From Candidatus Levyibacteriota bacterium (lineage in GTDB: Bacteria; Patescibacteriota; Microgenomatia; Levybacterales; UBA12049), in the NCBI GenBank assembly GCA_963716145.1, contig OY970292.1, positions 965,404-1,029,403 of the forward strand: a stretch of 64,000 nucleotides of DNA. The letters run 5' to 3'. The translations under genes and the position numbers were made by a program. Below, piece by piece: positions 33,510 to 56,016 of this stretch (the first letter of the stretch is position 1; each line of letters begins with the position of its first letter). Below the pieces are notes generated by a model. The model searched no databases. It worked only from the letters and a program-made list of their open reading frames with translations, and was not told the origin of the DNA.

Positions 33510-33536
33510 TTGGCACTCGTGCTATATTATTGCTAA
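33500..33536 (+). promoter_or_regulatory. sigma70-like promoter (TTGACA-17-TATATT) overlapped by a degenerate CIRCE-like inverted repeat
   Basis: ttgaca at 33500-05, tatatt at 33524-29. ttggcactc-N9-tattgctaa (33510-33536) versus the CIRCE consensus TTAGCACTC-N9-GAGTGCTAA. The ATG of hrcA lies 12 nt after the -10 element. Confidence 0.45.
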
Positions 33537-33541
33537 TTCAC

Positions 33542-34273: not shown

Positions 34274-34274
34274 A

Positions 34275-34325
34275 CGAAGTTCAAAATTCAAATTGCAAAA
34301 TTCAAAATTACAATTAAAAATTAAA
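34275..34325. repeat. AT-rich intergenic motif family member (CAAAATTCAAA / AATTAAAAATT)
   Basis: gttcaaaattcaaattgcaaaattcaaaattacaattaaaaattaaaaatg immediately upstream of grpE. Confidence 0.6.
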
Positions 34326-34326
34326 A

Positions 34327-34827
34327 ATGACTAAAAAAGACATAAAAAATGAAGAAGAGAAGCTTGATGAAACAGAAGAAATTGAGGAAAACACAGAAGA
34401 CAGTGAACTTGAACAATTAAAAGTAAAGCTGGAATCAGCAGATGACAGCTACAAAAGAGCGCTTGCTGATTATCAAAATTTGCAGAAAAGAGTAAGTGAT
34501 GAAAGACGAGATCTGATATTGGCGGCCAATAGAGATTTGCTCTTGCGAATTCTTTCTGTTTTGGATACACTGGTTCTTGCAAACAAGCATGACGAGAGCG
34601 AAGGTTTGAAAGTCGCTATTAAGCAATTTGAAGATATACTAAAGTCAGAAGGTGTTACAAAAGTAGAAACTAAAGGATTAGAGTTTGATCCTCAATTTAT
34701 GGAAGCTGTAGCAATTGATTCTGGGGAGGAAAATAAAGTTTTAGAAGAAATGCGTTCAGGATTTATGTTAAACGATAAAGTTCTGAGACCGGCGCAAGTG
34801 AAAGTAGGTTCTGCAAAGCAGAATTAG
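34327..34827 (+). CDS. grpE: nucleotide exchange factor GrpE
   Basis: Acidic N-terminus, coiled coil (…DSYKRALADYQNLQKR…) and a C-terminal beta domain. Confidence 0.85.
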   Translation: MTKKDIKNEEEKLDETEEIEENTEDSELEQLKVKLESADDSYKRALADYQNLQKRVSDERRDLILAANRDLLLRILSVLDTLVLANKHDESEGLKVAIKQFEDILKSEGVTKVETKGLEFDPQFMEAVAIDSGEENKVLEEMRSGFMLNDKVLRPAQVKVGSAKQN

Positions 34828-34839
34828 GAGGAATAAATT

Positions 34840-36759
34840 ATGGGAAAAATAATAGGAATAGATTTAGGAACAACAAATTCAGCAATGGCTGTGATGGAAG
34901 GTGGGTCACCTAAGGTTATCCATTCGGCCGAGGGACGAAACACTGTACCATCTGTTGTTGACCCGATCGCGCATATTGTTGGCGATGTGGCAAAGCGTCA
35001 AATGGCTCTTAAGCCAAAACGCACAATTTTTTCAATAAAAAGATTAATCGGGCGTAAATTTAGCGATAAGACCGTACAGGGGGATATAAAATGGCTTCCG
35101 TATACTGTTAAGGCAGGACGCGACGATATGGCCGTTGTTGAGGTTGAGGGAAAGACTTTTACTCCTCAGGAAATTTCAGCTCAAATTCTGCAGAAGATTA
35201 AAGCGGATGCTGAGGCATATCTTGGGGAAAAGGTAACCCAAGCAGTTATCACAGTTCCTGCATATTTTGATGACAGTGAGCGTCAGGCAACCAAGCAGGC
35301 TGGGGAAATCGCTGGACTTGAAGTTTTGCGTATCATTAATGAGCCAACAGCTGCAGCCCTCGCGTATGGTTTGGATAAAAAGAATGCGCACACCATCGCG
35401 GTTTACGACTTGGGTGGAGGAACTTTTGATATCTCAATTCTTGAATTAGGGGATGGTGTCTATCAAGTTAAATCCACAAACGGTGATACGCATCTTGGCG
35501 GAGACGATTTTGACCAGAAGATTATAAATTACTTGGCAGATGAATTCCAGAAAGAAAACGGAATTGATCTAAGAAAAGACCCTCAAGCCCTACAAAGACT
35601 TAAGGAGTCTGCCGAAAAAGCAAAGATTGAGCTTTCAAGTAGTCAGGAGGCATCCATTAACCAGCCCTTTATAACTCAGGGAAAAGACGGCCCTTTACAT
35701 CTGACTATGAGTTTGTCCAGATCCAAACTTGAGCAAATTGTTGATGACCTGATCCAAAAAACACTAACGCCTCTTGAAAAAGCAATAAAAGACGCAGGGG
35801 TAAAAGTTGCGGATGTTAATGAGGTAATTATGGTAGGCGGTATGACCCGTATGCCAAAGATAGTTGAGGTTGTTGAGAAATTCTTTGGGAAAGAAGCTAA
35901 TCGGTCAGTAAATCCAGATGAAGTTGTGGCAATCGGTGCTGCCGTTCAGGCCGGAGTTTTGGGTGGTGAGGTGAAAGACGTTTTGCTTTTGGACGTCACG
36001 CCATTGACGCTTGGGATTGAAACTCTCGGAAGTGTCTCAACACCATTGATCGAGCGGAACACAACTATCCCAACCAGTAAATCTCAAGTTTTCTCAACAG
36101 CCGCAGATAACCAAACGCAAGTTGAAATTAACGTTCTTCAGGGTGAGCGCCCAATGGCAGCTGACAACAAGTCGCTTGGACGGTTTATCTTAGAGGGAAT
36201 TCCACCCGCCCCAAGAGGTGTACCACAGGTTGAGGTAACATTTGATATTGATGCAAATGGTATTTTAAATGTCTCGGCAAAAGACAAGGCAACCGGTAAA
36301 GAAAACAAAATCCAAATTACAGGAAGCACCGGTCTTTCCAAGGAAGAAGTTGAAAAAATGACCAAAGATGCGGAAATGAACGCAAAAGAAGATGAAGAGA
36401 AGAAAGAAAAGATTGAGGCTCGAAATCACGCTGATTCACTCATATTTACCGCTGAAAAATCTTTGAAGGATGCAGGAGACAAAGTCGCACCTGAAATAAA
36501 AACAGAAGTTGAAGAAAAGATAAAAGCATTGAAAGATATTTTGGATAGCGGATCAAAAGAAGAGCTTGAAGCAAAAACCAATGAACTTTCAGAATCTCTT
36601 CAGAAAATAGGCCAAGCCGCATATCAACAAGGGCAGCAAGCGCAAACTCAGGAGGAAATTGAGAAAGAAGAGAAAGAGGGAAAAACTGACGACGCAACAG
36701 ATTCAGATAAGGACAAGAAAGATAAGGAAGAACCGGTTGAGGGAGAGGTTGTAGAATAA
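34840..36759 (+). CDS. dnaK: molecular chaperone DnaK (Hsp70)
   Basis: GIDLGTTNS…, [16 protein letters not shown], …EVEKM…, acidic C-terminal tail. Confidence 0.95.
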
Positions 36760-36764
36760 ATTTC

Positions 36765-36850
36765 CAATAATTACCAATTTCAAATATCCAATTCCCAAGA
36801 CGTTTATTTGATATTTGCAATTTGAAATTAGAAATTTGTAATTCAAAAGA
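36765..36850. repeat. AT-rich intergenic motif family member (CAATTTCAAAT / GCAATTTGAAATTAGAAATTTG)
   Basis: Low-complexity A/T run with CAA/TTG periodicity between dnaK and dnaJ. Confidence 0.5.
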
Positions 36851-36852
36851 GC

Positions 36853-36876
36853 GCTAAAGGCGCTTTTTTAGTATAA
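36853..36876 (+). terminator. short hairpin + U-tract (agcgc-taaag-gcgct-tttttt) between dnaK and dnaJ
   Basis: 5-bp GC stem followed by six T's, 8 nt before the dnaJ start; a weak or partial terminator. Confidence 0.35.
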
Positions 36877-36883
36877 TTAACCT

Positions 36884-37762
36884 ATGGCAGACAAAAATTA
36901 CTACACAGTTTTAGGCGTTTCCAAAACTGCTTCAGCGGACGAGATTAAAAAAGCTTACCGTAAGCTTGCTTTGGAATTTCATCCAGACCGCAACAAATCA
37001 AAAGAGGCAGATGCTAAGTTTAAAGAAGTCACCAAAGCATATGAAGTGCTATCAGATGAAGGGAAAAGAAAAACTTATGATCAGGTAGGCCACGCGGGAT
37101 TTGAGCAGGGAGGATTCGGCGGAGCCGGAGGTGGGCCATTTGGCGGCGGCCAGGGTGGGCAGCAAGGCGGACAATACGGACCATTCAGTTATACCTATTC
37201 ACAAGGGGGAAATGGGGCAAATTTTGATTTTGGAGGATTCTCCGACCCATTTGAGATATTTGAACAGTTTTTTGGCGGTGCGTCTCCTTTTGGCCAACGT
37301 CAGCGCCGTCCTGCGTATTCAGTAAAAATTAGTTTTGATGAAGCAGTGCATGGAGTTGAAAAACAGGTAAGTATAGACGGAAAATCACAGAAAATAAAAA
37401 TTCCTCCGGGTGTGGACCGCGGACAACGGATGCGTTTTGGGGATTATGATGCGGTGATAGATGTTACACCTGACAAGCGTTTTGCCAGGGAGGGCTATGA
37501 CATTATAACTGAGAAGGAAATTTCATTCCCCCAAGCAGCACTTGGAGGAGAAATATCGGTTGACACAGTTGATGGCGATGTGAAAATTCGTATTCCTGCC
37601 GGGACACAGCCTGAGACATTGATCCGGCTCGCCGGGCGGGGAATAAAACACCTGCAGTCAAATGGACATGGTGATCACTACCTAAAAATAAAAGTTACAG
37701 TCCCTAAAAAATTGAACAAACAACAAAAAGAGCTGCTCGAACAGCTTGAAAACGCTAAATAA
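36884..37762 (+). CDS. dnaJ: DnaJ-family co-chaperone (J domain + G/F-rich region + C-terminal substrate domains; no CxxCxGxG zinc finger)
   Basis: J domain with HPD (…[13 protein letters not shown]…), a G/F-rich linker, and no cysteine repeats, giving type II/CbpA-like architecture. Confidence 0.8.
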
Positions 37763-37836: not shown

Positions 37837-38136
37837 ATGGCATTTTGTCCCAATATTAATGATATAAATACGGATTTTGGGTGCTTTCCCAATGATCCTA
37901 TTGGTTTTGTTTTAGCGTTTTACCGTATTGGGCTTCCGTTTGTGGGAGGTGTTGCTTTAATTATTTTAATGATTGGAGGTTATACGCTCATGACTTCGCA
38001 AGGTGATCCGCAGCGCGTACGTTCTGGAAAAGCGTGGATTTACTACGCGATCGGGGGACTTTTGCTTGCAGTTTTCGGGTACGTCATTATTCAGACAATT
38101 GCCGGAGACATATTGAAGATACCAGGCTTTAGTTAA
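37837..38136 (+). CDS. small two-TM 'pilin-like' membrane protein (VirB2/TrbC-like topology), paralog of the C-terminus of 32793..33509
   Basis: 99 aa: two hydrophobic helices flanking a polar loop (…GGVALIILMIGGYTLMTSQGDPQRVRSGKAWIYYAIGGLLLAVFGYVIIQTIAGDILKIP). Position-by-position similarity to the C-terminus of the Cys-rich protein. Confidence 0.55.
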   Translation: MAFCPNINDINTDFGCFPNDPIGFVLAFYRIGLPFVGGVALIILMIGGYTLMTSQGDPQRVRSGKAWIYYAIGGLLLAVFGYVIIQTIAGDILKIPGFS

Positions 38137-38138
38137 GT

Positions 38139-41100
38139 ATGAAAAAATTTCTGCCCATATTTATAATTGTTTTCTTCGTTGGATTGTTTTTTACAAAAAC
38201 CCCGGTATTTGCTGCTGACCCTCCAGCTCAGCAGATGCAACAGGGAGCAACGGCACCCGATGGATCCTGGGTTTTGGATTCTGAAGTAACCTTTATAGGT
38301 AAAAATGCCGCAAGGTCCGGTAATCTGCTCGATTTTATATTAACAAATTATAATTGGGTTTGTGTTAAGCAGGCAGCAACTGGACAGTGCGACAACAGCG
38401 ATAATCCATTAAGAGGGGTATGGTTGACCACCGCTACATTTATAGTAGCCCCATTGCTCTTGATTGTCATACTTGCTGCCGCAATAGTAATAATGGTTAC
38501 GAGAGGCCGAAGTCTTACGATTACGCGTTTTCTTCCTCGGTTTATAATAGTGATTCTCTTAATTTTCATATCTTTTCCTATATTGCAGTATTTTTACCAA
38601 TTTATAGATAGCATTCAAGGGTTTTTCTTGAGACGGGAAATTATCCTTTTTGGTACGCCGTTTGGAGGCAACCCATGTCCACCTCAGTGTATTTCTCAAA
38701 AAGATCTGCTTTTTGTGGGCTGGGATTATGATAAATTTATTGGGCTTAGGCGAGTAGGCGATCTTTACTCAGAATCTGCATTCATCTCTCTTTTGCTCAC
38801 AAAATTAACAGCGCTTACTTATTATGTAATGGTTGGGATACTAATTCTTCGAAAAATTATTCTCTGGCTTTTTATAATTGTTTCTCCTATTTTTCCGCTT
38901 CTTTTGATGTTTTATCCAGTTCGCAATACCGGGAAGATTTGGATTGGGGAATTTTTTCGTTGGCTCTTGTACGGTCCGCTTTTCGCTATTTTTCTGAATG
39001 GGTTGGTGGCTTTATGGAGGAAGCAGATTCCCTTATCGTTTACCCCATTAGATCCCGCAGTTAAGGTAAACGAAACCATTCTTTATCCAACTGCTATAAA
39101 CATACTATTGGGAGGGCCCAGGCAATTCGTAACGCAGACTAACAGTGTCAACCTTACGGAAACATTTGCTTTATACGTAGTCTCATTACTCATGTTATGG
39201 GGGGTTATCATACTGCCATGGATACTTTTGCAGATATTTCTTGATTATGCTTCCAACTTAGGAGTTAGTGACAGTGCGGTTATGAAAAATCTGGTAAATA
39301 TGGTAAATAGGCAAAATTCTCCATCTCCCACGGGACATCCGCCTGCGACATCGGGATCTGCTCTTAGCTTGCCTTTTGCCAAAAAGTTCAGCATGCCTCT
39401 TCCTGCGGCTCCCGCTGGTATGGCAAAAGAGATACCTATTTCAACAGCAAAGATATCGCAAGCTACTTTTATGCCATCAGCTCAAGTTAAGGCACAGGTA
39501 TTAAGTCTGGCTAGTGTGCCTCTGCCTACAATGCGGGATATTGCCAAATACGATACATCTTTAATTTCAAATGATAATTCTACTCGAAATCAAGTCCAGG
39601 CACTTCAGAAGCATTTACAACAAATTGGAAATCCCGCATCTTCTACTTCAACTACAGAACGTGAAAGGTATACAGAAATACACGAAAAACTTAGTCAAGA
39701 GAGTAAAACTGGAAATACTCTGGCAACATCAATTCTGAATGCAGCGAGTACGGCTTCCAAACGGAGCAGTCAAGTAAGTAGCGCGCAAGTAAAAAATATT
39801 TTAACCCAAATTGCCAACCCTACAACCGCTTCAAGCTCAGTTGTAAACCGAGAGAAACTCTCTAAGATGAATCAGTCGCTTACAAAAGCGAAACAGGAGG
39901 GCAATACTCTTGCAACGGCGATTTTGTCTGTAAATGCAAAGACTCCGGAGTCGGAAGTTGTAAAACTGCAGGAAAAAATAAGAGAAGCCAGAGAAAAAGG
40001 CGAACCTGTTGGAGTTCAGCTGGCTCAACTTACTGAGAAAAAAGAAACAATCCCACTTGTTAATCGTGTTCAGACGGTAAGTAAGGAAGATTATGAAGCC
40101 GTAAAGCAAATGTGGAAAGAAAATTATAAAAATCTCGAAGTGCCGGAAGGTATGGCCGGAACCCGTGAAGAATGGGTTAAGGACGATGTCGCTAAAATAG
40201 ATAACATCATCGTTCAACTGGGCTCACACGACGAAGAACAGATGAATAAAGGCATGGAGGAGGTATCAAGCATTCTACCCTTCCTTTTAGTTGGAGGCTT
40301 TTCACAAACAGAAATTATATCTTATCTAAAAGCTAAGCAAGATGCAGCAAAAGAAGTAACTGCAGAATTGGCCCAGGAAGAGGATGATAAAGTTTCTGTA
40401 ACCGTAAAGAAGACTGCTACGGCTCAGCAAACAATGTCAGCTTCTGTTTCGGAAGATTCAGATGAGGAGTCAGATCTAACCAACTTATCCTCAAGACCAG
40501 CAAATATTATTAATCCCCAAGTGTCAAATGAAATCCTAGAGATGGTTAATCTTAAGCTTCCTAATATGCGTGATATTGCAAAATACGAAACAATGACGTT
40601 ATCAAAAGATAAATCTAAATCGTTAGAAGTCGAGAAAGTACAGGAGGTTCTCCGAAATATTGCTAACCCAACAGGTATAACTAATGCTTCTGATAAGGAG
40701 CGTTATGAAAAACTTAAAGAAAAAATGATTGAGGCAAGTCAACAAGGTAATGTTACCGCAGAGATCATTTTGGCGGCAGCAAATGGGGCAATACCTGTTA
40801 GTAGCACAGTAACTTCCGCTCAGACTAAGACAGTTCTTTCACAAATTGCCAATCCGTCTCTTGCCGCTTCATCAAAAGACAAGCAGCGATTTACTTCACT
40901 TCACGATCAGCTGACAAAAGCAAGTCAACAGGGAAATACTCTGGCAACGTCTCTTCTTTCCGTTAAAGAAACAGCAACCAAAGAGGAAGTGGAAAAGCTT
41001 AATGCTCAATTGGGAGAAGCAAAGGCAAAAGGTGAAAGTCTTGCTAGCTCAGTATTATCAAACATTGCACCTCCTATCTCTCTTCCTGTAACCAATCGTA

Positions 41101-42815
41101 TCCAAACGGTAAGCCAGGAGGATTATCAAGCGGTAAAAGAGATGTGGAAAGAAAATTACCAGAATCTTGAAATCCCCGCTGGTCTGGCAAGCACAAGACC
41201 TGAGTGGATTAACAACGATATTTCAAAGATTGATAGTATCATTACTCAATTGTCATCAACTGATCAGGAACAGGTAGCAAAAGGCATGGAGGAGGTATCA
41301 AGCATTCTACCCTTCCTTTTAGTTGGAGGCTTTTCACAAACAGAAATCACCGCTTATCTAAAAGCAAAACAAGACGCAGCAAGGGAAATACTTACAGTAA
41401 TCTCACAGGAAGAAGATACAAAGATAACGGTTGATAGAAGGCAAACAAACATCAAGCAAACAATGAGAGCAGCTATTCCCCAAGCAGCAGACGAGGAGGC
41501 TATGAGTTTAGCCGGTCCAACAAAAAATATAGTTATTCCGCAAATTTCAGAAAAGACATTAACAATGGCCAATCTTCAGCTTCCCAAGTTGACAGATATT
41601 GTCAAATATGAAGTAAGGAGTTTGACAAAAGACAAAAAAGAGTCAGAACGTATCGAGAAAATGCAATCAGTGCTTGTAAAGATTGGTAATCCGGCAAGTA
41701 TTACAACTCCGCAGGAGCGTGCGCAATATGAAAATCTCCGCCAAAAACTTGGGGAAGAAAGCTTAAAAGGTAATACTACAGCAGATATGATTCTGTCAGC
41801 AGTTTCTAACTTAGAAGGAGCTGTTTCTGAAATTAATGCAACACTGGTAGACATAAGTACAGTACTTCAGCAAATCGCAAATCCCCAGAGCGTTGCATAT
41901 GCAGATGACCGTGATTATTACACACGTTTGCATCAATATCTAGAAAAAGAAAGTAAAGAGAAAAATAACGTACTCGCTGAAAAGATTTTGAGCGTCAATA
42001 AGACAACCAAGACCTCAGACATACAGGATATTAAACAACAATTAATACTTACGAAAGATGGGACAGTATCTCTTCTTCCGCAATTGACGACAGTTATAAA
42101 TGACTTTTCTACTACTAAAAAGTTGAGATCAGTAATAAATCAAATCTTATCACCTGAACCTGTGGGGGGTAAGCCTGCTAGCGCTACAGTTATAAAAATT
42201 CGAAAGTCAATAGATGAGGCAAATAAAAAAGGTGACATTCTTGCAGCATCAATATTGTCGGTTAATGATAAAACATCCGATACAGCCATAAAGCAAATTC
42301 ACGAAAAGCTTACTGAAGCAGGCAAAAAGGGCGATCCCGCTGCACAGGCAATTATTTCGCAAGTCTCTGGACCCTTTGCTTCGTCAAGCGCAAACCGTAT
42401 ACAAGAGGTTACACCGGAAGAGTACGAAGAAGCAAAGGAATTATGGAAAAAAGCCTACCTACAGTATTTTGTCCCTCCTGGTTTTACAGAGGATATTAAG
42501 GGAAGAATTGATTGGATAAGCAAAGACAGTAAGGATATTGAAGAGACAATTGGTCTTTTGCAGTCAACTGACGAGGAAAAGAAAGATACAGGAATCAAAA
42601 AAGTTTCAAGCATTTTGCCATTTTTGCTTCTGGGAGGTTTTTCCTATGATGAGATGATTGAGTATCTTCAAACTAAGCTGGAAGCAGGAAAAGAAGCGTT
42701 AGCTAGTATTAATGATGAAGAGGATAAATCAATTGAAATAAATGTTAAAAAGGAGGAAAAACCTCAAGAAATGCAAGCAAGCGAAGAGATAGAAGGTACA
42801 GATAAGAAAAATTAA
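38139..42815 (+). CDS. giant (1558 aa) polytopic membrane protein: signal peptide, ≥6-TM N-terminal domain, then three ~344-aa super-repeats built from a ~90-aa 'IANP…ASQQGNTLA…ILSV…AKxKG(D/E)' module
   Basis: Signal peptide and TM helices within aa 1-380. Repeated blocks include LPxMRDIAKYE…IGNPA…, …ILTQIANP…LTKA(K/S)QQGNTLATxxLSV… and GMEEVSSILPFLLVGGFSQTEIxxYLKAKQDAA, with 65 nt identical at 40251-40315 versus 41283-41347. Starts 2 nt after the pilin-like gene. Confidence 0.7.
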   Translation: MKKFLPIFIIVFFVGLFFTKTPVFAADPPAQQMQQGATAPDGSWVLDSEVTFIGKNAARSGNLLDFILTNYNWVCVKQAATGQCDNSDNPLRGVWLTTATFIVAPLLLIVILAAAIVIMVTRGRSLTITRFLPRFIIVILLIFISFPILQYFYQFIDSIQGFFLRREIILFGTPFGGNPCPPQCISQKDLLFVGWDYDKFIGLRRVGDLYSESAFISLLLTKLTALTYYVMVGILILRKIILWLFIIVSPIFPLLLMFYPVRNTGKIWIGEFFRWLLYGPLFAIFLNGLVALWRKQIPLSFTPLDPAVKVNETILYPTAINILLGGPRQFVTQTNSVNLTETFALYVVSLLMLWGVIILPWILLQIFLDYASNLGVSDSAVMKNLVNMVNRQNSPSPTGHPPATSGSALSLPFAKKFSMPLPAAPAGMAKEIPISTAKISQATFMPSAQVKAQVLSLASVPLPTMRDIAKYDTSLISNDNSTRNQVQALQKHLQQIGNPASSTSTTERERYTEIHEKLSQESKTGNTLATSILNAASTASKRSSQVSSAQVKNILTQIANPTTASSSVVNREKLSKMNQSLTKAKQEGNTLATAILSVNAKTPESEVVKLQEKIREAREKGEPVGVQLAQLTEKKETIPLVNRVQTVSKEDYEAVKQMWKENYKNLEVPEGMAGTREEWVKDDVAKIDNIIVQLGSHDEEQMNKGMEEVSSILPFLLVGGFSQTEIISYLKAKQDAAKEVTAELAQEEDDKVSVTVKKTATAQQTMSASVSEDSDEESDLTNLSSRPANIINPQVSNEILEMVNLKLPNMRDIAKYETMTLSKDKSKSLEVEKVQEVLRNIANPTGITNASDKERYEKLKEKMIEASQQGNVTAEIILAAANGAIPVSSTVTSAQTKTVLSQIANPSLAASSKDKQRFTSLHDQLTKASQQGNTLATSLLSVKETATKEEVEKLNAQLGEAKAKGESLASSVLSNIAPPISLPVTNRIQTVSQEDYQAVKEMWKENYQNLEIPAGLASTRPEWINNDISKIDSIITQLSSTDQEQVAKGMEEVSSILPFLLVGGFSQTEITAYLKAKQDAAREILTVISQEEDTKITVDRRQTNIKQTMRAAIPQAADEEAMSLAGPTKNIVIPQISEKTLTMANLQLPKLTDIVKYEVRSLTKDKKESERIEKMQSVLVKIGNPASITTPQERAQYENLRQKLGEESLKGNTTADMILSAVSNLEGAVSEINATLVDISTVLQQIANPQSVAYADDRDYYTRLHQYLEKESKEKNNVLAEKILSVNKTTKTSDIQDIKQQLILTKDGTVSLLPQLTTVINDFSTTKKLRSVINQILSPEPVGGKPASATVIKIRKSIDEANKKGDILAASILSVNDKTSDTAIKQIHEKLTEAGKKGDPAAQAIISQVSGPFASSSANRIQEVTPEEYEEAKELWKKAYLQYFVPPGFTEDIKGRIDWISKDSKDIEETIGLLQSTDEEKKDTGIKKVSSILPFLLLGGFSYDEMIEYLQTKLEAGKEALASINDEEDKSIEINVKKEEKPQEMQASEEIEGTDKKN
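39550..42760 (+). repeat. in-frame tandem super-repeat array (period ~1032 nt, three copies) inside the giant membrane protein gene
   Basis: Protein-level three-fold repetition. The 65-nt identical DNA block between copies 1 and 2 indicates recent duplication or gene conversion. Confidence 0.8.
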
Positions 42816-42869
42816 ATTACTTGTTATTTTACGGTAATTAGTATTTAATATAATAGAAGAAAGGATACT

Positions 42870-45800
42870 ATGTTTGGAACATTTTTTAATCAAAAAAAAC
42901 CTGGGGATACTGATTCTAATCAGCAGAATCCTCAAAATACACCTGACCAAACCAATCAATCTTTAGCTCCAAGTAGTCAAACTCCCTCGGGGCAAATTCA
43001 GCAAGCGCAAGATCCGGTAGCGCCTGGACCTATCAGCCCAAACATCTCACAGGATACGTCTTCTCAAGATGTTCAGCAGCAGCCAAATATAAATACTCCT
43101 ATTAAAGATCCAACCGGCAATTTATCACAAAGAGCTGATACTCAAGCATTATCGCACCTTGATCCAAGAGCTGGGCAAGTCCTCACTCACGCGCAAGAAG
43201 AAACAAGACGTATAAAGCAGCAATTTATAGAACCCGCTCAAATCCTTTTTGGCCTATTGTATGATGAGCAGATTTACAAATTATTGGAGGAGTCTCAAGT
43301 TGATGGCGGTGCGTTATCCAAAGAAATTCAGTCAAAAGAAATAATGGGTGTTTTTAGAGGTCAACCAGCTTTAAGTAAGAATGCGCAGGCAGTATTTGAC
43401 CAGGCGTATAAAGACTCAAAAATGCGCGCATCCAACTTTATCTCCGCTGAAGACTTATTGATTGCTTTATTTACTCCTGACTTTGGGGTTTCACAGTCTT
43501 TGGAATCACGAGGGCTTAAAAAAGAGGCCTTAATTGAAAGAATTGCCAAAAATCCTAATTCAAACTACAGCAAAAAAACAATTCTTGAAAGCTACGGAAT
43601 TGATCTCAACGAAGAAGCCAGATCCGGAAAACTTGATCCCATTGCGGGTCGGGATTTGGAAATTGACAGGATGGTTCACATTCTTCTCCGAAGGACTAAA
43701 AACAATCCGATTATTATCGGTGAAACAGGAGTTGGGAAAACAGCAATAGTTGAGGGATTGGCACAGAAAATTGTTGCAGGACAAGTGCCCAAAGATTTAC
43801 AGGACAAAAGAGTTTTTCAGCTTGATGTTGCTTCGCTGGTTGCGGGTGCATCGCACAGGGGAGAATTTGAGGAGCGTCTCCGGGGAGTAATTAATGAAGT
43901 TTTGGGATCAGGAAACAAAATAATTCTTTTTATTGATGAGATTCACGCGCTTTTGGGGACAGGAGACGGAGAAGGGATGAATGCTGCAAATATCATAAAA
44001 CCCCACTTGGCCCGTGGCCATTTGCAGCTGATTGGTGCTACAACCACTATTGAATACAGAAAGAATTTTGAAAAAGATAAAGCATTTGAGAGGCGCTTTC
44101 AGCCTGTAACTGCTGAAGAGCCTTCGGAGGAAAATGCTTTTGAAATGCTCAAAGTCATCCGCCCAAAATATGAGAAGTTCCATAGAGTTACTATTTCTGA
44201 CGACACTCTTATGGAATGTGTCAAACTCTCCAAAAAATATATAGGAGAGCGTTATCTACCTGACAAGGCAGTTGATTTATTGGATGAGGCAGGATCAGAA
44301 GTAAAATTACAAGCGGACGAAGGCAAAAGAGCTGATGCTCAAGTTAAAAAGGCTGATATTGAAAACGTAGTAAGTGGATGGACTGGAATACCTATTACTA
44401 AATTGACAGAGGATGAGTCCGAAAAGCTCTTAAAGCTTGAAGACAGGATCCATCACAGGCTTATTGACCAGATGGAGGCAGTAGTTGCTGTTTCTGAAGC
44501 GGTAAGGCGGGGAAGGATCGGTTTGGCCGCTGCCAATAGGCCGATTGCTTCGTTTGTATTCTTAGGTCCAACAGGAGTTGGAAAAACGGAACTTGCCAAA
44601 ACACTTGCCGAGCTTTTGTTTGGCCGTGATGACGCCATGGCAAGACTTGATATGTCAGAGTATATGGAGAAGCACGAAGTTGCAAAGCTTATAGGTGCAC
44701 CTCCGGGCTATGTTGGTTATGAAGAAGGTGGTCAATTGACAGAAGCAGTTCGAAAGAAACCTTATTCAATTGTACTTCTGGATGAAATAGAAAAAGCACA
44801 CCCTGACGTATTTAACATTCTGCTTCAATTACTTGAAGATGGAAGATTGACTGACAATAAGGGAAATACAATTTCATTCAAAAACACTATTGTAATTTGT
44901 ACATCCAATATCGGAAGTTCTCTCATTCAGGAAAAATTGGCAGAAGATGACCCGCAGCACAAAAAAACACCTGATGAGCAGGCAAAAACATTCAAAGAAC
45001 TGACAGAGGTTGTTAAAGGAGAGCTTATTAAATTTTTTAGGCCAGAACTTCTTAACCGTTTTGATGAGGTTGTAGTATTCAAGCCGCTCGCTCAGGAACA
45101 TATGGCAGGAATTGCAAGATTGGGAATCAAAAAGACAGCAGGCCTTCTTAAAGAGCAGGGCTTTACACTTCAAATTACAGAAAAAGCTATCGCAAAGTTG
45201 GCAAAAGACGGATATGACCCGGTTTATGGCGCAAGGCCTCTACGTCGTTTAATTCAAACAGCGATTGAAAATCCAATAGCCCTTGAGATAATTTCCAAAA
45301 AATTTGAAGCAGGAGATACGATCGTTGTTGATTATAATGATGCAAGTAATGAGTTTACATTCACCAAAGGCCAAAGTGATGTAAATACAGCAGATAGCTT
45401 GAAAAAAATACTGCTTGATATAAATAATGCATCAGGCCTTACTGATCCAGCAAAAAAAGATCAATACACTAGGCTCCACGACAGCATCACTCAGGCTAGT
45501 GCTCAGGGAAATGTGTGGGCTGGTGCAATACTTGTTGTAAATAAGGATAGTAAGAATGAAGAAATTGAAAAAATTGCAAAAGAGTTAAAAGCAGCTCGGG
45601 ACAAAGGTGATCAGCTTGCTCAGGATATAGTGGCACTCTTAAATACAGAAACAGTTAAGGAGGCTGAAATGGAACATGAGAAAGAGCCGGTAACCCAGTT
45701 TAAAAAAATGCTTCAACAAATAATTAATCCTTTGTATTCGGCAACACCAGGTAACAAGGATAGATTTAGTCAATTGTATGAAAAACTTACAGCGGCAAGT

Positions 45801-46553
45801 CAACAAAACAACTCAATTGCCGCCTCAATTCTTGCAATTACAGAACAAGCCCCAGATTCAGATATTCAGCAGTTAAAAACTCAACTTGAAACTGCTAAGG
45901 GTCAAGGTGATCAGTTGGCAATTGATATTCTTTCAACAATAGAAGCTGGTACCAAAACCGAAGCAGTAGCAAGGCTTAAAGAAGTATTGCTTTCCATAGT
46001 TAATCCTATTACTGTTCAGATTCCACTTGAAAAAGAAAAATATGTGGCACTTGCCAAGAAAATTTCCGAAGCGTCTCAAGCTGGGAATGCTTTAGCAAAT
46101 TCGATACTTTCTGTAAACGATGCGACTACTGATGACTCACTTATACAGCTTAAGACTCAATTAGAAACTGCAAAGGATAGTCATGATGAGGTGGCTAGTG
46201 CAGTTTGGGAGATGGTATCCGGGACGGGACTGATTGCAAGCGCTGAACAGCAAGTCTCAGAGCAAAATCCCGCTAAAACATACCCATTTGGTATGGGGCA
46301 GCAGCCTGTTAATAACCCATTGACCCCAGATCCATCTCAGGGAGCGGTCTTGCAGCAGGGGGCGGTTCTTCAAGCACCAATTGCCCAACCAGCTTTTGGT
46401 CAATCAAGTGGCGGGCCGACTACTTTCCAGCCCCCTACAGCTGATCCCCAAAGCGGCATGAGTCCGGGAATGAGTACGTTAAATGAAATTTTGGAAAAAG
46501 ATACAGATTTGGTAAGTAATCCTGTTGAATCAGACGGTCAGGATATAACTTAA
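42870..46553 (+). CDS. ClpC/ClpA-like double-AAA+ unfoldase: N-terminal Q/P/S-rich tail, Clp_N domain, D1 and D2 but no M-domain and no ClpP-docking loop, plus a C-terminal ~380-aa extension carrying the same repeat module as 38139..42815
   Basis: Clp_N (…[34 protein letters not shown]…). D1 Walker [19 protein letters not shown]; D2 Walker [21 protein letters not shown], Walker [11 protein letters not shown], sensor [12 protein letters not shown]. The C-terminus shows three repeats (…[44 protein letters not shown]…[17 protein letters not shown]…; …[43 protein letters not shown]…[14 protein letters not shown]…; …[11 protein letters not shown]…[19 protein letters not shown]…[12 protein letters not shown]), then a Q/P/G-rich tail. 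Confidence 0.85.
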
Positions 46554-50932: not shown

Positions 50933-51466
50933 TCAAGAAGAGCCGCAGTGTATGTCATCAATTAACCATTTTCCGCCAATTTGCGCCATTCTGAATACAT
51001 CATATTGAGCTCTTCCTCCAACATTTCCTGCGCTAATTTTTACCAATGGCTGCCCGATTTCATTATAAGTTACATCCCCCACCATTGACCCGCTACCTGA
51101 ATCATCTGAGCAAAAAACAGGATCATTTCCATTTTTGTAAGACTCCCTAAGAAGATCTTTAAAATCGTTACTCAGGTACATATTGTTACTAAAGCCTCCA
51201 TTTGCCAGTGGATTTGCCGGGCGTGAAAAATACCAGGCGTAAAATTCTTTAGCTACCCCATCAGGAGAAATTGAGGTTGGGCCTTGGGAAGGTTGTCCAA
51301 CGTTTGAAGAATTATCAAAAGGTTTTTCTGAATTCCCAGACGATTGTTGTAGCTCTTTACTTTCTTTATTATTGATAGAACTTTGCATAAAAAGGAGAAT
51401 GCCAAATATCACCAAAAGAAGACCGCCGGTAGCCGCAAGAAGCGTATACTGTTTTTTGATATCCAT
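50933..51466 (-). CDS. hypothetical secreted protein with an N-terminal TM anchor
   Basis: 177 aa: N-terminal hydrophobic helix, S/N/G-rich linker, globular C-terminus with two Cys. Confidence 0.45.
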   Translation of the reverse strand: MDIKKQYTLLAATGGLLLVIFGILLFMQSSINNKESKELQQSSGNSEKPFDNSSNVGQPSQGPTSISPDGVAKEFYAWYFSRPANPLANGGFSNNMYLSNDFKDLLRESYKNGNDPVFCSDDSGSGSMVGDVTYNEIGQPLVKISAGNVGGRAQYDVFRMAQIGGKWLIDDIHCGSS

Positions 51467-51563
51467 AGCTATATATACTATAAAAGATTACATTGACTCG
51501 TGTCAATTGATCTATATAAAACTTGACAAGTTTTTTGAAAAATCTCTATACTGGGATAGATAA

Positions 51564-52439
51564 ATGAAAATCAGTAAGAAAAGCAGGGGAAGCATAGGAG
51601 GGGGAACATTATATGTAGTTCTTATTATGTTAATCCTTGGCGTATTATCGTTTGAGCTGATGGGCGGAAAGTTGCCTTCATCCCAAAGCAACCCCAGCGG
51701 ACAAGAAGTAATAGTTGATCCTTTCGTACCGGATCCTACTAAGGGAAATCTTCAACTATACACGTTTTTAGGGCACACTCCTGTGCCAACGCCCCCGATA
51801 ACGTCTGAACTTTGTAGTAACAGCGGAGGACAGAACGAATTCGGTTCTCTGGTTGGATTTTCTCCTACTCCCGATGGTAGGGTGGTGGATGGAAAGCTGA
51901 GAATTTGGGTAATCGATGAAAAGCCTCCGTTGCTGGCTCCGGGACAAACACTTGATCCCAACGGTGTTCCTCAAGGCGGAGATCTTACTCAAAAAAGGGG
52001 TATTTTCCCTTTGGGTCCAACACTCTATATTTTCCCAAATACAGTTGAAAGGGGCGGTACACCTTATACCCCCAATTTTGTTAAAGGCACTGTAAATAAC
52101 GGGCGCGATCTTAGGGGCCCTACAATCGATTCGGACTATAAGCAGTTTCAGAATGGACCTGATTTTGTAGGTAATCCTTCCCCAATTGACCTACCCAAAC
52201 CTGGTAGAAATGTATTCTTTGGAAAGAGGTACGAAACAGAATATATTGCTGAATTTACCTGGAACATAAGCTCTCTAGGGCTTGGCCCGGTACTCATCAA
52301 GTACAATTTGCGGCATATGATGGTGATGGTGACCGGGCAGCGGGTTGTACCTCTTTTACCATTTAATAAATATCCAGCTCCTTATTTAACCCACCAATCT
52401 ATATTCATTTGTAATTTTAAAATAGACCACATATACTAA
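51564..52439 (+). CDS. hypothetical membrane-anchored extracytoplasmic protein
   Basis: 291 aa: N-terminal TM (LYVVLIMLILGVLSF), a P/G/T-rich region, no recognisable motif. Confidence 0.45.
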   Translation: MKISKKSRGSIGGGTLYVVLIMLILGVLSFELMGGKLPSSQSNPSGQEVIVDPFVPDPTKGNLQLYTFLGHTPVPTPPITSELCSNSGGQNEFGSLVGFSPTPDGRVVDGKLRIWVIDEKPPLLAPGQTLDPNGVPQGGDLTQKRGIFPLGPTLYIFPNTVERGGTPYTPNFVKGTVNNGRDLRGPTIDSDYKQFQNGPDFVGNPSPIDLPKPGRNVFFGKRYETEYIAEFTWNISSLGLGPVLIKYNLRHMMVMVTGQRVVPLLPFNKYPAPYLTHQSIFICNFKIDHIY

Positions 52440-52446
52440 AATAAGC

Positions 52447-52776
52447 ATGAAAAGCTATTTATTTTTACCTTTTGCTTTATTAAAATTCTGGTATATTGAA
52501 AGCCCTAGGGAAATTGTCGGCTTTTTTGGCTCACTGAATAAGTCATTTTTCCAAATATTTGCACTTCCTCTTTTTCTTAGGACATTTTTCAAACCTTTAA
52601 AAAACGAGTACAGGCAAGGTTTAGTTGGTTTCTCAAGAGCTATGGGAATGTTCATCAAATCATTTTTCATCATAGCCGATCTTATCTTATTAATTCCTCT
52701 TTTAGTGGTTGAATTGCTCGTAATAATTTTATTTCTGGGTTTTCCGATTATGACAGTGATGTTATTATTTTTATGA
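52447..52776 (+). CDS. small membrane protein, hypothetical
   Basis: 109 aa, two or three TM helices. Its stop overlaps the start of the next Clp-like gene. Confidence 0.4.
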   Translation: MKSYLFLPFALLKFWYIESPREIVGFFGSLNKSFFQIFALPLFLRTFFKPLKNEYRQGLVGFSRAMGMFIKSFFIIADLILLIPLLVVELLVIILFLGFPIMTVMLLFL

Positions 52777-55181
52777 TTAAATACGCAAAAATATATCATT
52801 TTTACCGCAGCGCTTTGATGCGAAGTTTAAGGCTTGGGGTTGCTGCTATTTTACTTTTTATTATTGTTAATCAATTTTCTCATGGAATAACTTCCAAAGT
52901 TCCGTTATTTCTTTTTAATCTATTTGTAATTTTTGAGGTATTTTTCCATCATCATGTAAGCAAAATTACACCTAAGCTAATTGTTTCAAAGAACCCTGGA
53001 AAAGACGTATATCAATCTTTCACTATGCAGGCTCTTTTACCATTTGTTACTGAGCAAAAGACAAGCGGGATAATTAAAAAATTAATTAAATATTCGTCTG
53101 TTAAACTTTTTATGCAAAAAGCCAATATAGCCAAACAGGACTTGGCATATGTGGATTTGGATAAAGATTTGCTTGCAAAAAGTGCGTTTGACGCGGCAGT
53201 CACCTTCAAAGGTAAGCTTGTAACCACCGTTGACGTACTTGTTGCTTACCTTTTTCTTATTGAGCAGGATAAAAAATTGCTTTTTGCAAAGCAACTGAAA
53301 TCAGAAGATTTATATAATATTTCTTATTGGATAAGGCTGGAAGCTCCACAGGAAGAAAATCCCAAAAAAGTTCGCGTCCATTTTGACGGATCAGGAATAG
53401 GAGAGAGTCTGGTTTCGGGCTGGACTCCTGAAACAAAAAAATACACGTCTCTATTTACATCTACCGCTCTTAAATATACCCCGCTGATACGGGGAAGAGA
53501 AAATGAGTTCAAAACAATGCTTGAAGCTCTGATAAAAGTGGAAAATAACAACGTGCTTCTGGTTGGAGATATTGGGGAGGGTAAGGAGAATCTGGTTAGG
53601 GCGCTTGCCTACTTTAGTTTTGAGGGAGAATTGGGGGGATATCTTAACTACAAACGCGTTTTGGAACTTTTGGTGGGCGCATTGACAGCTGGTGCAACAA
53701 ATAGATCAGATTTAGAGGGAAGGCTTCAGGAAATAATTGCTGAGATTTCTCATGCACAAGACGTTTTAATATATGTTCCGGATTTTCAAAACATACTCGG
53801 AGCATCTTCCTATGGTCTTGATCTTTCAGGAGCACTTCTTCCTTTCCTTAAGACAGGGAATCTGCCTCTTATCGCGACGATGACAACTGGTAGTTACAAG
53901 ACTTACATGGAGAAAAATCCATTAAAAGAAGCATTTACAATCATTATATTAAAAGAACCGGATAAAAATACTGCTATACAGATGATATTGGGGGATTCCT
54001 CAACAATTGAAAAAAAATATAATGTGATTTTAAGCTACAGAAGTATTTCAAGTGCGGTTGAGCTAGCTGATCGTTTTGTTCAGGATCAAGCATTGCCGGG
54101 AGCAGCCATAGCACTTCTTGAGACAGTTGCCAACAAAATTGCTCTCGCGAAAGATGTTCCACGTTTTGAAGGATCGCACCGCAAAATCGTGCTGGAAGAA
54201 CACGTAGTTAAGCAGGTTGAACAGGAGGCTCATGTCGCGATAGGAATGCCCTCAGGCGAGGAAATTAACTTGCTTCTTCACCTGGAAGAAAAGCTCCATG
54301 AGCGGGTAATTGAGCAAAACGAGGCAGTAACCGCGATTTCCGAGGCAATGAGAAGAGTCAGGTCAGGTATGATGACATCTGAAAAGCCTGTGTCTTTTCT
54401 TTTCTTGGGACCCACAGGAGTCGGAAAGACAGAAACAGCCAAAACGCTTGCCGATTTTTATTATGGAGGTGAGAAAAACATGATCAGGCTTGATATGAGT
54501 GAATATACAGGGGAGGACGGGCTTAAGCGGTTGCTGGGAGCCTCTCCCGGGCAGGGGGAGGAGCGGGGGGAATTGACGGATAAGGTTCACGATAATCCGG
54601 CAAGCCTTATTCTTCTTGATGAGTTTGAGAAAGCAAATCCGGCTATTCATAATTTATTCCTACAAGTTTTGGATGACGGGCGGTTAACCGATAACAAAGG
54701 CGTAACTGTTAGTTTTCGTAATGCCATAATTATTGCGACTTCAAACGCAGGTTCTGAATATATTCGCGAAGAAGGAGGGAAAGGAACAAAAATGGACAAG
54801 CAATTTCAGCAAAAATTATTGGATTATTTACAGACCAAAAATCTTTTTAAGCCGGAACTATTGAACCGTTTTGATGGTGTAATTACATTTAAACCTCTTG
54901 GAACAGCGCAGGTTACACAAGTCGTAAATTTACTCTTGAAAAGTCTGACGAAATCACTTGAGGATCAGGATATAAAGCTTGTTTTTGAGCCTGCGGTTAT
55001 AGAAAAGATTTCAAACGAAGGCTTTGATCCGGAATTTGGCGCCAGACCTCTGAAGCGTTACATTCAAGACAATATTGAAGATATGATCGCGCAGAAAAAG
55101 CTGACTAAGGAATTGGATCGGGGTAAAACAGCTACTTTCTCAATCGACGGCACAGGAGCACTCAATCTTACGGTTTCCTAA
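52773..55181 (+). CDS. membrane-anchored Clp-like double-AAA+ protein with a degenerate D1 and an intact D2
   Basis: N-terminal TM helices (LGVAAILLFIIVNQF…, LFLFNLFVIFEVFF) and a Clp_N-like region. D1 Walker A GDIGEGKENLVRALA (Thr→Glu), Walker B region VLIYVPDFQN (no DE). D2 [28 protein letters not shown] and sensor …ATSNAGSEY… are intact. No IGF/LGF loop. Confidence 0.75.
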   Translation: MIKYAKIYHFYRSALMRSLRLGVAAILLFIIVNQFSHGITSKVPLFLFNLFVIFEVFFHHHVSKITPKLIVSKNPGKDVYQSFTMQALLPFVTEQKTSGIIKKLIKYSSVKLFMQKANIAKQDLAYVDLDKDLLAKSAFDAAVTFKGKLVTTVDVLVAYLFLIEQDKKLLFAKQLKSEDLYNISYWIRLEAPQEENPKKVRVHFDGSGIGESLVSGWTPETKKYTSLFTSTALKYTPLIRGRENEFKTMLEALIKVENNNVLLVGDIGEGKENLVRALAYFSFEGELGGYLNYKRVLELLVGALTAGATNRSDLEGRLQEIIAEISHAQDVLIYVPDFQNILGASSYGLDLSGALLPFLKTGNLPLIATMTTGSYKTYMEKNPLKEAFTIIILKEPDKNTAIQMILGDSSTIEKKYNVILSYRSISSAVELADRFVQDQALPGAAIALLETVANKIALAKDVPRFEGSHRKIVLEEHVVKQVEQEAHVAIGMPSGEEINLLLHLEEKLHERVIEQNEAVTAISEAMRRVRSGMMTSEKPVSFLFLGPTGVGKTETAKTLADFYYGGEKNMIRLDMSEYTGEDGLKRLLGASPGQGEERGELTDKVHDNPASLILLDEFEKANPAIHNLFLQVLDDGRLTDNKGVTVSFRNAIIIATSNAGSEYIREEGGKGTKMDKQFQQKLLDYLQTKNLFKPELLNRFDGVITFKPLGTAQVTQVVNLLLKSLTKSLEDQDIKLVFEPAVIEKISNEGFDPEFGARPLKRYIQDNIEDMIAQKKLTKELDRGKTATFSIDGTGALNLTVS

Positions 55182-55473
55182 AGTCTATCTTTCTCAACTC
55201 ACCCTTGACATTATGATTTGGGGCTGCTGATCTAACTGCCAGAACGGTTCGATTTAAGGCAGCTTCGTCTAAACCAAAACTAACCACAGTAACACCGTTT
55301 GGTGATACGTGCAATGCTCCCCTATCTCTTTCGGGACCATTTATGCCCATTAATCTCATATCTCTCACTAAGTCATCAGGACCACGGCCCATACCGGAAA
55401 CAAATAAATCACCTCCGCTTCGGACATAAGGAGCGGATGGTATTCCCACGCATTCTGGACCAAATCTAGGCAT
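55168..55473 (-). CDS. hypothetical small protein; GC-richer than its surroundings; paralogous to 55555..55938
   Basis: 101-aa ORF. Shares a GP…(D)xxFV(S/G)SGxG… core with the neighbouring ORF. No plus-strand ORF of ≥60 aa overlaps it. Confidence 0.3.
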   Translation of the reverse strand: MPRFGPECVGIPSAPYVRSGGDLFVSGMGRGPDDLVRDMRLMGINGPERDRGALHVSPNGVTVVSFGLDEAALNRTVLAVRSAAPNHNVKGELRKIDFRKP

Positions 55474-55554
55474 ATAATTGCATTATATAAATTTAAAATT
55501 TAAAGTCAAGGAGAGATAATGTTAGATTTTTTGACGTAACTAACAATATATAAT

Positions 55555-55938
55555 TTAGCGTCTCATGCCTGCGGGGGTTGGGCGTCTCTCTCCAATTGGG
55601 GTGGGGGGTCTTTCGCCTATTATGCTATAACTGGGTCCTGCTAATTCTCCTATGTGTGCGATAGTCTCTGGTCTTATAATAGATCTGGGTGATCCATCTG
55701 GTGAAGGAACTGGTTCCACAGAAAAAACATCACCACGTCTACTACTCAGAAATCCTTCTTGAATACCTTCATTCCCTATCTCCACGCCGTCTCTCCGCAT
55801 CGCCGCAATTAGGGCAGCATGAGTAGTGTCCTTTGCAATCCCAGCATAAAAAGTAGTACCTGACCCCACAAATATTCTATCTAATCCGTCTTGTTGCGCT
55901 TCTGCAAAGATGCGCGGTCCAAGTGTTGATTTTGCCAT
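55555..55938 (-). CDS. hypothetical small protein with a Pro/Arg-rich C-terminal tail; GC-rich; paralog of 55168..55473
   Basis: MAKSTLGPRIFAEAQQDGLDRIFVGSGTTFYAGIAKDTTHAALIAAMRRDGVEIG…, then a C-terminal GERPPTPIGERRPTPAGMRR repeat. Confidence 0.3.
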   Translation of the reverse strand: MAKSTLGPRIFAEAQQDGLDRIFVGSGTTFYAGIAKDTTHAALIAAMRRDGVEIGNEGIQEGFLSSRRGDVFSVEPVPSPDGSPRSIIRPETIAHIGELAGPSYSIIGERPPTPIGERRPTPAGMRR

Positions 55939-56016
55939 ATATTTTGTATTATATAAATTTTCAGTCAAAAGTCAAGGTTGTGGGATCGAGCTTATTTTGC
56001 TATACTAGGCTTTAAT

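Follow-up and report, generated by a model that had tools for sequence, protein, structure and literature searches.

Proteins of the Hsp100/Clp family are textbook soluble threading motors. Their hallmarks are pore-loop tyrosines, plus either a ClpP loop or an M domain that binds Hsp70. Substrates enter at the face formed by the N-domain and D1, the first AAA+ module, and exit at D2, the second. Threading depends crucially on aromatic residues in the pore loops, the AAA2 loop being indispensable, and Hsp70 coupling requires the M domain (PMC8129007). Here, we describe an Hsp100-like ATPase encoded by Candidatus Levyibacteriota bacterium, within a 64,000-nucleotide stretch of contig OY970292.1 (hereafter, the window). 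The ATPase, Clp802, has 802 amino acids. Its gene is on the plus strand, begins with ATG, and occupies positions 52773..55181 including the stop codon, as delimited by a list of open reading frames (ORFs), Pfam matches and alignment to ClpC. A gene for a 109-residue membrane protein, small109, is found on the same strand at 52447..52776, according to the ORF list and hydropathy. The small109 stop codon overlaps the Clp802 start by 4 nt, as ATGA. An original prediction, made from the sequence of the window, had described this overlapping pair and both genes are present as it stated. Our leading, though tentative, proposal is by analogy with known machines: small109 and Clp802 may form one membrane-embedded machine with an Hsp100/Clp fold, acting as a D2-powered, non-threading remodeller at the cytoplasmic face of the membrane. 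Sequence comparisons indicate that the putative machine is conserved throughout Levybacteria. Variant forms, including single-gene fusions, appear across Patescibacteria.

Two homology searches retrieved more than 240 proteins of ~790-805 amino acids, at 43-85% identity. Most carry a Levybacteria or Patescibacteria label, and their annotation goes no further than 'ClpA/ClpC'. Residue states were counted over 211 full-length homologs. Briefly, Clp802 begins with a transmembrane hairpin and a very diverged domain resembling Clp_N, which are followed by D1, D2 and D2-small. It thus has the two-module layout of class I Hsp100/Clp proteins, with AAA_lid_9 following D1 (residues 398-463, 1.2e-08), an AAA_2-type D2 (residues 539-701, 7.3e-48) and ClpB_D2-small (residues 709-788, 7.5e-22). 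We modelled the monomer with AlphaFold2, using an alignment of 64 sequences (pLDDT 86, pTM 0.71). The model places transmembrane helices first, then an eight-helix N-domain, then the two AAA+ modules. Foldseek matched this model to ClpC, ClpB and ClpA (E 1e-49 to 1e-40), with a TM score of ~0.8 on the D1-D2 core.

The catalytic sites of D1 (residues 237-470; 53481..54182) are degenerate. The generic Pfam AAA model falls below threshold on this module, which aligns to D1 of B. subtilis ClpC at 103 bits. In this alignment the Walker A remnant (53565..53591) reads GDIGEGKEN, as opposed to GEPGVGKTA in ClpC; the lysine is kept and the Mg-ligand threonine has become glutamate. That lysine is present in 207/211 homologs and the next residue is glutamate in 193/211. 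The Walker B remnant (LIYVPDFQN, 53766..53792) has YVPDFQ opposite FIDELH, so that the aspartate is replaced by proline, as in 209/211 homologs. At the Arg-finger site (LKEAFT, 53922..53939) LKEAF stands opposite LERRF. The RR pair is EA in Clp802, and E/D plus A/N/V/S across the homologs. The pore loop (AGATNRSD, 53688..53711) aligns with AGTKYRGE; KYR has changed to TNR and the tyrosine position is N/T/S/D family-wide. Catalytic competence calls for GK[TS], hhhhDE and Arg fingers, and D1 of Clp802 offers GKE, VPDF and EA, keeping the Walker A lysine only. Degenerate Walker A and B motifs had been predicted. The residue alignment confirms them and adds the loss of the Arg fingers and pore tyrosine.

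Conversely, D2 and its small domain (residues 536-802; 54378..55178, from Pfam) keep every ATPase motif. The Walker A motif (54408..54434), Walker B motif (LILLDEFEKA, 54606..54635), sensor 1, Arg-finger motif (PELLNRFD, 54852..54875) and sensor 2 all have the canonical form, with no variation in 211/211 homologs. This holds for each of K552, T553, D616, E617, N658, R699 and R758, which include the DE of Walker B and the finger arginine. The D2 pore loop is different. In Clp802 this loop, GASPGQGEERGE (54537..54572), is acidic and has no aromatic residue. GASPGQ-G-EERGE lies opposite GSPPGYVGYDEGG of ClpC; the tyrosine is gone and there is a 2-residue deletion relative to GYVGY. The tyrosine position is E/Q/A in all 211 homologs. 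Hence, the description of D2 as canonical stands for the ATPase motifs and fails for the pore loop. Counting both rings, a pore-loop tyrosine occurs in 0/211 homologs. In more distant members of the wider homolog set the D2 pore loop is shorter still, by 4-8 residues.

The elements that connect Hsp100 proteins to ClpP or Hsp70 were sought in the same alignments. Where ClpC has KYVGFNV, the ClpP-loop region of Clp802 reads EEGGKGTKM. No [LIVM]G[FLM] tripeptide was found between the D2 sensor 1 and Arg finger in 208/211 homologs. In the remaining 3/211 the tripeptide lies in a helix and looks like chance. The predicted loss of a ClpP loop, shared with a soluble paralog in the window (Clp1227, 42870..46553), is therefore confirmed. 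ClpA aligns to Clp802 as one stretch, whereas ClpB and ClpC alignments split in two at the M domain. Hence, Clp802 has no M domain. The AlphaFold2 model has no long coiled coil, and D1 sensor 2 and D2 Walker A are 93-102 residues apart in the 211 homologs. Scores against NCBIfam equivalogs were 441 bits for ClpB (cutoff 1232) and 394 bits for ClpA (cutoff 993); Clp802 is far below cutoff for ClpK, ClpG and ClpV too. Pfam found no match to Peptidase_M41, the FtsH protease domain. We also considered membership of an anti-phage defence system. Matches to PADLOC DolB / PDC-M37B cover only D2 residues ~500-666 (130 bits), Clp1227 gives the same matches, and the context is housekeeping (dnaK operon, nusA-infB). 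The assignment was rejected.

Next to these losses is a membrane anchor. Kyte-Doolittle hydropathy identifies two segments of transmembrane grade in Clp802, at approximately residues 14-36 (52812..52880) and 42-62 (52896..52958), and the family-average profile of the 211 homologs shows no others. The second carries the conserved consensus FLFNLFVMFEVFFHY. AlphaFold2 models both as helices with pLDDT >90. Family-average counts of lysine plus arginine are 3.6 in the N-terminal tail, 0.8 in the loop and 4.0 after the second helix, a pattern that fits an N-in/C-in hairpin. A mis-called start codon was ruled out as the source of the hydrophobic region, as residues 1-62 are conserved as protein family-wide. 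Consistent with the original prediction, therefore, transmembrane helices are supported at the N-terminus by hydropathy, charge bias and modelling, and so is the combination of a pseudo-ATPase D1 with membrane tethering. The accompanying remark that such helices are rare for Clp/Hsp100 proteins applies to characterised members and does not extend to the wider patescibacterial family described below.

The hairpin is followed by an eight-helix N-domain (residues 79-190; 53007..53342). A Clp_N-like region had been predicted here. By sequence, none is detectable: Pfam found no Clp_N match in Clp802 or in 30 family N-domains, and a PDB profile search with the N-domain gave no Clp_N signal. A separate AlphaFold2 monomer model of residues 64-236 (pLDDT 85) returned Clp/Hsp100 N-domains for all of the top 50 Foldseek hits, which are weak (E 0.15-1.3, TM score 0.4-0.59, 10-14% identity). 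In one relative, P0509, where the small109 module and ATPase are fused, Pfam does match Clp_N (23.7 bits, cutoff 20.7). We thus read the modelled domain as a probable, strongly diverged Clp_N fold, and for Clp802 the prediction has weak support, at the level of fold only. Between the N-domain and D1 is a conserved motif specific to the family, EE.P...G.GIGE..V.GWT.ETKKY (residues 194-224; 53352..53444), in which E195, G208, W217 and E220 are invariant. The AlphaFold2 confidence is low there (pLDDT ~60). This linker motif is a candidate interaction site.

The neighbouring small109 gene is consistently tied to the ATPase. We compared 38 species-representative loci and two metagenome loci. A small109 homolog is directly upstream of the ATPase gene in 36/36 loci that have upstream DNA, with gaps of -4 to +48 nt, mostly <=8. 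In all, 255 homologs of ~109 amino acids were found, every one labelled 'hypothetical'. small109 bears the motif FWY..P..FFKPLKNEYRxGLVGFS and has a very hydrophobic C-terminal half (residues 64-109). The family version, F-W-..P..F.S.N..F..L..T..P.KNEYR.GL..FS..G..K followed by a hydrophobic C-terminal half, is near-invariant. Neither Pfam, NCBIfam nor PADLOC gave a match, even when 26 members were searched with a permissive E-value. A hidden Markov model (HMM) of the small109 module detected it in 7/7 wider-family loci, as a separate upstream ORF in L041, L042, L045 and L047 and as a fusion in L043, L044 and L046. With one iteration, the HMM found the module fused to the N-terminus of the ATPase in 25/149 listed representatives. 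The fusions in other lineages indicate that small109 and Clp802 make up one functional unit. Our comparisons indicate that small109 is an obligate partner, or a split-off N-terminal module, of the ATPase. Co-transcription, which the original prediction thought probable, is supported, and the adjacency and fusions make the link stronger than was supposed. The ~50-70 hydrophobic residues in fused relatives do not fit cleanly with a simple model of two transmembrane helices from each protein.

Two side observations concern the partner gene in other genomes. On a public 846-kb metagenome contig (L041:5622..6000) an uncalled small109 homolog on the plus strand abuts the ATPase gene (E 7e-29); the gene caller had put a 66-aa minus-strand ORF in its place. 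At L047, the ATPase P0372 has 1191 amino acids and Pfam lists AAA_2 and ClpB_D2-small twice each, so that the D2 unit seems to be duplicated. Here, too, a gene for a small109-like protein, of 124 amino acids, comes before it.

The eroded state of D1 is under selection. The degenerate motifs persist in a set of 92 homologs and in the larger one of 211, even at 43% identity. The D2 large domain is the most conserved part, with a mean pairwise identity of 0.73, followed by the D1 large domain at 0.54 and the N-domain at 0.43. Between Clp802 and the closest locus, L004, the ratio of nonsynonymous to synonymous substitution rates (dN/dS) is 0.07 overall, 0.05 for D1 and 0.05 for D2; these values are approximate, with dS at ~1.7-2.0 and near saturation. 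Hence, because the D1 motifs are near-invariant, dN/dS is low and the D2 residues are intact in 211/211 homologs, we conclude that the degenerate state is selected and is not decay.

To this we added a profile search of 1.84 billion representatives, which gave at least 150 matches at >=549 bits; 141 of the matches listed are full-length. On the same profile, Clp1227 scores 512 bits. Segments of transmembrane grade occur within the first 200 residues in 138/141 of these full-length proteins. None of the 141 has D1 KYR or D2 GYVG, and none has the D1 Arg-finger pair RR. Their D2 pore loop varies greatly, where it is not deleted. Walker A GK[TS] is kept in D1 of 47/141 and Walker B DE in 23/141. 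In fused members such as P0420, P0449, P0476, P0505 and P0509 Pfam recognises D1 as AAA. Hence, the extent of D1 erosion varies by degrees within the family, with the Levybacteria form at an advanced stage. Source labels in this wider set include Levybacteria, Berkelbacteria and 'Patescibacteria group'.

We propose the following mechanism. Clp802 would form a ring; assembly is expected because the D2 Arg finger, which acts in trans, is invariant. D1 may serve as a non-hydrolysing structural ring, possibly one that binds nucleotide, and D2 would be the sole motor. The N-terminal anchor is joined by a ~17-residue linker. Hence, as in FtsH and Msp1, the entry face of N-domain and D1 would press on the membrane from its cytoplasmic side, ringed by transmembrane helices of Clp802 and its partner. 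Such an arrangement favours clients that are membrane-embedded or membrane-proximal, and weighs against outward export. Aromatic pore-loop residues are absent family-wide and the D2 loop is variable, which argues for action without threading. More likely, the ATP cycle would serve to remodel, release or gate the partner module, or a client in or near the membrane, without processive threading. The machine would thus have a role in membrane-proximal proteostasis or assembly. Clp802 would act independently of ClpP and without coupling to Hsp70 of the M-domain type used by ClpB. The original prediction was of a membrane-proximal translocase or unfoldase. Its membrane tethering is supported; translocase or unfoldase activity is doubtful, given non-aromatic pore loops and a D1 entry face at the membrane.

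In Levybacteria the order of genes is hrcA-grpE-dnaK-dnaJ, an optional block, small109-Clp802 and nusA-infB. In the window the hrcA-grpE-dnaK-dnaJ cluster, identified by Pfam (33500..37762, plus strand), is separated from small109-Clp802 by the optional block. This comprises genes for a T4SS-pilin-like protein, a 1558-aa membrane protein and Clp1227, to which a cupredoxin and a UvrD/PD-(D/E)XK helicase may be added. In ~18 loci the block lies between dnaJ and small109; 11 loci, and also the more distant L045, lack it there. At L023 and L045 the small109-ATPase pair begins ~140-150 nt after dnaJ. Hence, Clp802 is constant and Clp1227 variable, and a partnership of the two is unsupported. The original prediction had cast Clp802 as a second ATPase that may partner with the paralog at 42870, and had suggested looking for 42870-type genes near its relatives. 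As part of the optional block, such genes are found there in some loci and are missing in others. A diverged CIRCE-like inverted repeat (TTGGCACTC-N9-...TGCTAA, 33510..33536), with 3-4 mismatches to consensus, stands at the head of hrcA, and the same repeat is found at hrcA in seven related loci (L001, L023, L031, L032, L035, L036 and L038).

Other mechanisms were weighed against the non-threading remodeller. The closest rival, which we consider unlikely, is an ATP switch resembling torsin. Here there would be no client processing; the ring would be a membrane scaffold regulated by ATP, with the D2 cycle setting the conformation of the small109 module or another membrane complex, or directing its assembly. 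Pore loops that have no aromatic residue, and in D2 of the wider family vary greatly or are deleted, would suit a switch. So would an obligate small membrane partner, since torsins are ClpB-D2-like AAA+ proteins that need transmembrane partners (PMC4358337). However, D2 of Clp802 has, unlike torsin, an Arg finger of its own and the full set of catalytic motifs, small109 is far too small for an AAA-like activator, and the conserved Clp_N-like domain suggests binding of clients or adaptors. Improbable, in our estimation, is a threading disaggregase or unfoldase of the ClpB/ClpC type, anchored at the membrane and cooperating with the DnaK system encoded nearby. The pair does directly follow hrcA-grpE-dnaK-dnaJ in many loci, the fold is that of Hsp100 and the D2 motor is intact. 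Yet there is no M domain, and no pore-loop tyrosine in either ring of any of the 211 homologs. Both are required for ClpB function (PMC8129007; PMC4023160). The ClpB and ClpA equivalog scores, far under cutoff, and the missing CIRCE element before the pair also count against a disaggregase.

A very unlikely alternative is that Clp802 hetero-oligomerises with, or hands substrates to, Clp1227. No more than ~6 kb separates the two genes in the window and ~18 related loci, and the ClpP loop is absent from both proteins. Conversely, they are only ~35-39% identical, the block encoding Clp1227 is missing from the interval in 11 loci and L045, and the membrane family reaches far beyond lineages that have this arrangement. 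Even less probable is an export translocase in the manner of PTEX, in which the ring would push proteins outward through a pore of transmembrane helices. A hexamer with its partner would supply ~24 or more such helices, and the coupling of an Hsp100 to a membrane pore has a precedent in PTEX. However, substrates move from D1 to D2 in the established direction, and the N-terminal anchor sets the D1 entry face at the membrane rather than the D2 exit face. Pore loops without aromatic residues, and SecA in related genomes, are further points against export. Finally, the 4-nt overlap and the fused versions elsewhere might suggest a decaying locus, with small109 and Clp802 a single frameshifted ORF or D1 eroding neutrally. 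The conservation data effectively refute this: the split is kept in 36 loci with differing junctions, dN/dS is low in D1 as in the whole protein, and the 'degenerate' residues are near-invariant.

Several observations weigh against our own proposal of a D2-powered, non-threading remodeller. Its functional part draws on anatomy and analogy. Non-aromatic pore loops do not strictly rule out translocation, and ~6/141 of the full-length matches listed have tyrosine at the D2 pore-loop position. A link to the dnaK cluster is suggestive at most. Adjacency to dnaK could be mere conserved gene order, and adjacency to nusA-infB is equally conserved. No CIRCE (the HrcA operator) was found before small109 in the window or the 40 loci, where it occurs only at hrcA; direct control of the pair by HrcA thus finds no support. 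Outside Levybacteria the neighbours differ (recA-secA...prfB-ftsEX, rarA, ribosomal proteins), and only the partner module is common to these neighbourhoods. A bolder version of the proposal is rather unlikely, though worth stating. It posits an undescribed, lineage-wide machine of Patescibacteria: a double Hsp100 ring powered by D2 only, beneath at least two dozen transmembrane helices, supplied by its hairpin and by the small module, split or fused, moving, releasing or gating membrane cargo without threading, as Bcs1 or torsin might and Clp proteins would not. Such a machine could be a core, possibly essential, component of envelope upkeep or remodelling in these reduced, host-dependent cells.

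Immediately upstream of small109 is a gene for a 291-aa protein, p291 (51564..52439, plus strand; ORF list, Pfam and hydropathy), with an N-terminal transmembrane or signal-anchor segment and no family match. It is Pro/Gly-rich and ends 7 nt before small109. A promoter-like site, TTGACA-18-TATACT, lies ahead of it (51523..51552, plus strand; consensus match only). From this arrangement, p291, small109 and Clp802 may form one transcription unit in this genome, headed by the promoter-like site. Among the relatives, p291 is shared with L004, the closest, and no other, and it is probably outside the core module. A 177-aa protein encoded on the minus strand (50933..51466), with a weak match to DUF3828, is likewise shared only with L004. 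Hence, the interval just upstream of the pair is variable.

Downstream (55168..55975), two minus-strand ORFs of 101 (55168..55473) and 137 (55555..55968) amino acids occupy the ~830 nt that separate Clp802 from nusA. Neither has a Pfam match or a homolog in the 40 related loci, and they show no similarity to one another. Both are preceded by the same strong promoter-like site, TTGACT-16-TATAAT, which ends ~9 nt before the ATG; transcription looks leaderless. GC content is 0.43 across the 2-kb stretch containing these ORFs and 0.37 in the preceding 2 kb, and the window stays at ~0.43 onward.

Further observations concern the optional block and the remainder of the window. The T4SS_pilin-like gene encodes 99 amino acids, precedes the gene for the 1558-aa protein and scores 25.8 bits against a cutoff of 26.6. 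With the 1558-aa protein and Clp1227 it travels as one block after dnaJ (37837..46553 in the window) in ~18 related loci. Clp1227 has canonical Walker motifs and GYVGY in D2, a D1 pore loop with SHR and no tyrosine, no ClpP loop and no M domain. Its C-terminal tail of ~400 amino acids consists of helical repeats, which cross-match at 25-45% identity to the repeats that fill the 1558-aa protein (38139..42815). Elsewhere, a minus-strand S-adenosylmethionine (SAM) riboswitch (RF00162, 32311..32414; 51 bits, above the gathering score) is the only Rfam match in the window. A scan of the 64 kb found no tRNA genes, and neither scan found anything near the Clp802 locus.

These data describe a large subfamily under strong purifying selection that is without all three Hsp100 hallmarks, sits in the membrane and always occurs with a small module. 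Public labels for its members are 'ClpA/ClpC', 'AAA family ATPase' and 'hypothetical'. The partner is 'hypothetical' and, in one sampled locus, uncalled. Because the ClpP-docking loop is absent, automated labels of the type 'Clp protease ATP-binding subunit' are misleading for this family. Our search of full texts, which had incomplete coverage, found no account of a membrane-anchored Hsp100 in the candidate phyla radiation. If our reading is correct, the family would widen the known range of jobs done by the Hsp100 scaffold. It would also offer a conserved, experimentally tractable target in Patescibacteria, where few machines are characterised.

Clp802 belongs to the Hsp100 fold. Its closest PDB sequences are B. 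subtilis ClpC (4.6e-105) and ClpB (5e-104), and its D1-D2 spacing is like that of ClpA. With class I proteins (ClpC, ClpA and ClpB) it shares the order N-domain, D1, D2 and D2-small, and all D2 ATPase motifs. Unlike them, it has a transmembrane hairpin, an obligate membrane partner, non-aromatic pore loops and an N-domain unrecognisable by sequence, and has lost the D1 catalytic residues and Arg fingers. It differs from ClpA and ClpC in having no IGF/VGF ClpP loop, and from ClpB and ClpC in having no M domain. Hence, it fails both the features of ClpB (M domain, pore tyrosine) and those of ClpA and ClpC (ClpP loop, active D1). As the parts for gripping proteins, docking a protease and working with DnaK are absent, Clp802 and small109 probably do a different job, at the membrane, from that of Clp/Hsp100 motors.

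Among other AAA+ systems, FtsH and Msp1/ATAD1 are rings that extract substrates from membranes, and their N-terminal transmembrane anchor puts the entry face of the ring at the cytoplasmic side of the membrane (FtsH, PMC7949044; Msp1, PMC7018516). They differ in having a single AAA ring and aromatic pore loops, with an M41 protease in FtsH; Clp802 would be a double ring with neither aromatic pore loops nor a protease domain. Torsins are not known to have aromatic pore-loop residues. Torsin with LAP1/LULL1 resembles the pair as a ClpB-D2-type AAA+ protein at a membrane with a transmembrane partner (PMC4358337). However, torsin is a single, lumenal module that takes its Arg finger from an AAA-like partner. 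Clp802 has two modules and its own R699, and small109, at ~109 amino acids, has no AAA similarity. In D2 of NSF and D1 of PEX1/PEX6 and p97, one ring keeps the P-loop lysine without the residues needed for hydrolysis, and has been conserved in a structural or assembly role. One non-hydrolysing ring is also what we propose for D1 of Clp802, although those proteins are soluble, belong to another AAA+ clade and have aromatic pore loops in the active ring. Lastly, PTEX HSP101, with EXP2, and ClpV of the type VI secretion system are likewise Hsp100s that have been repurposed, serving a membrane-associated apparatus instead of ClpP or DnaK. Unlike Clp802, both keep pore-loop tyrosines, thread their substrates and are not themselves membrane proteins.

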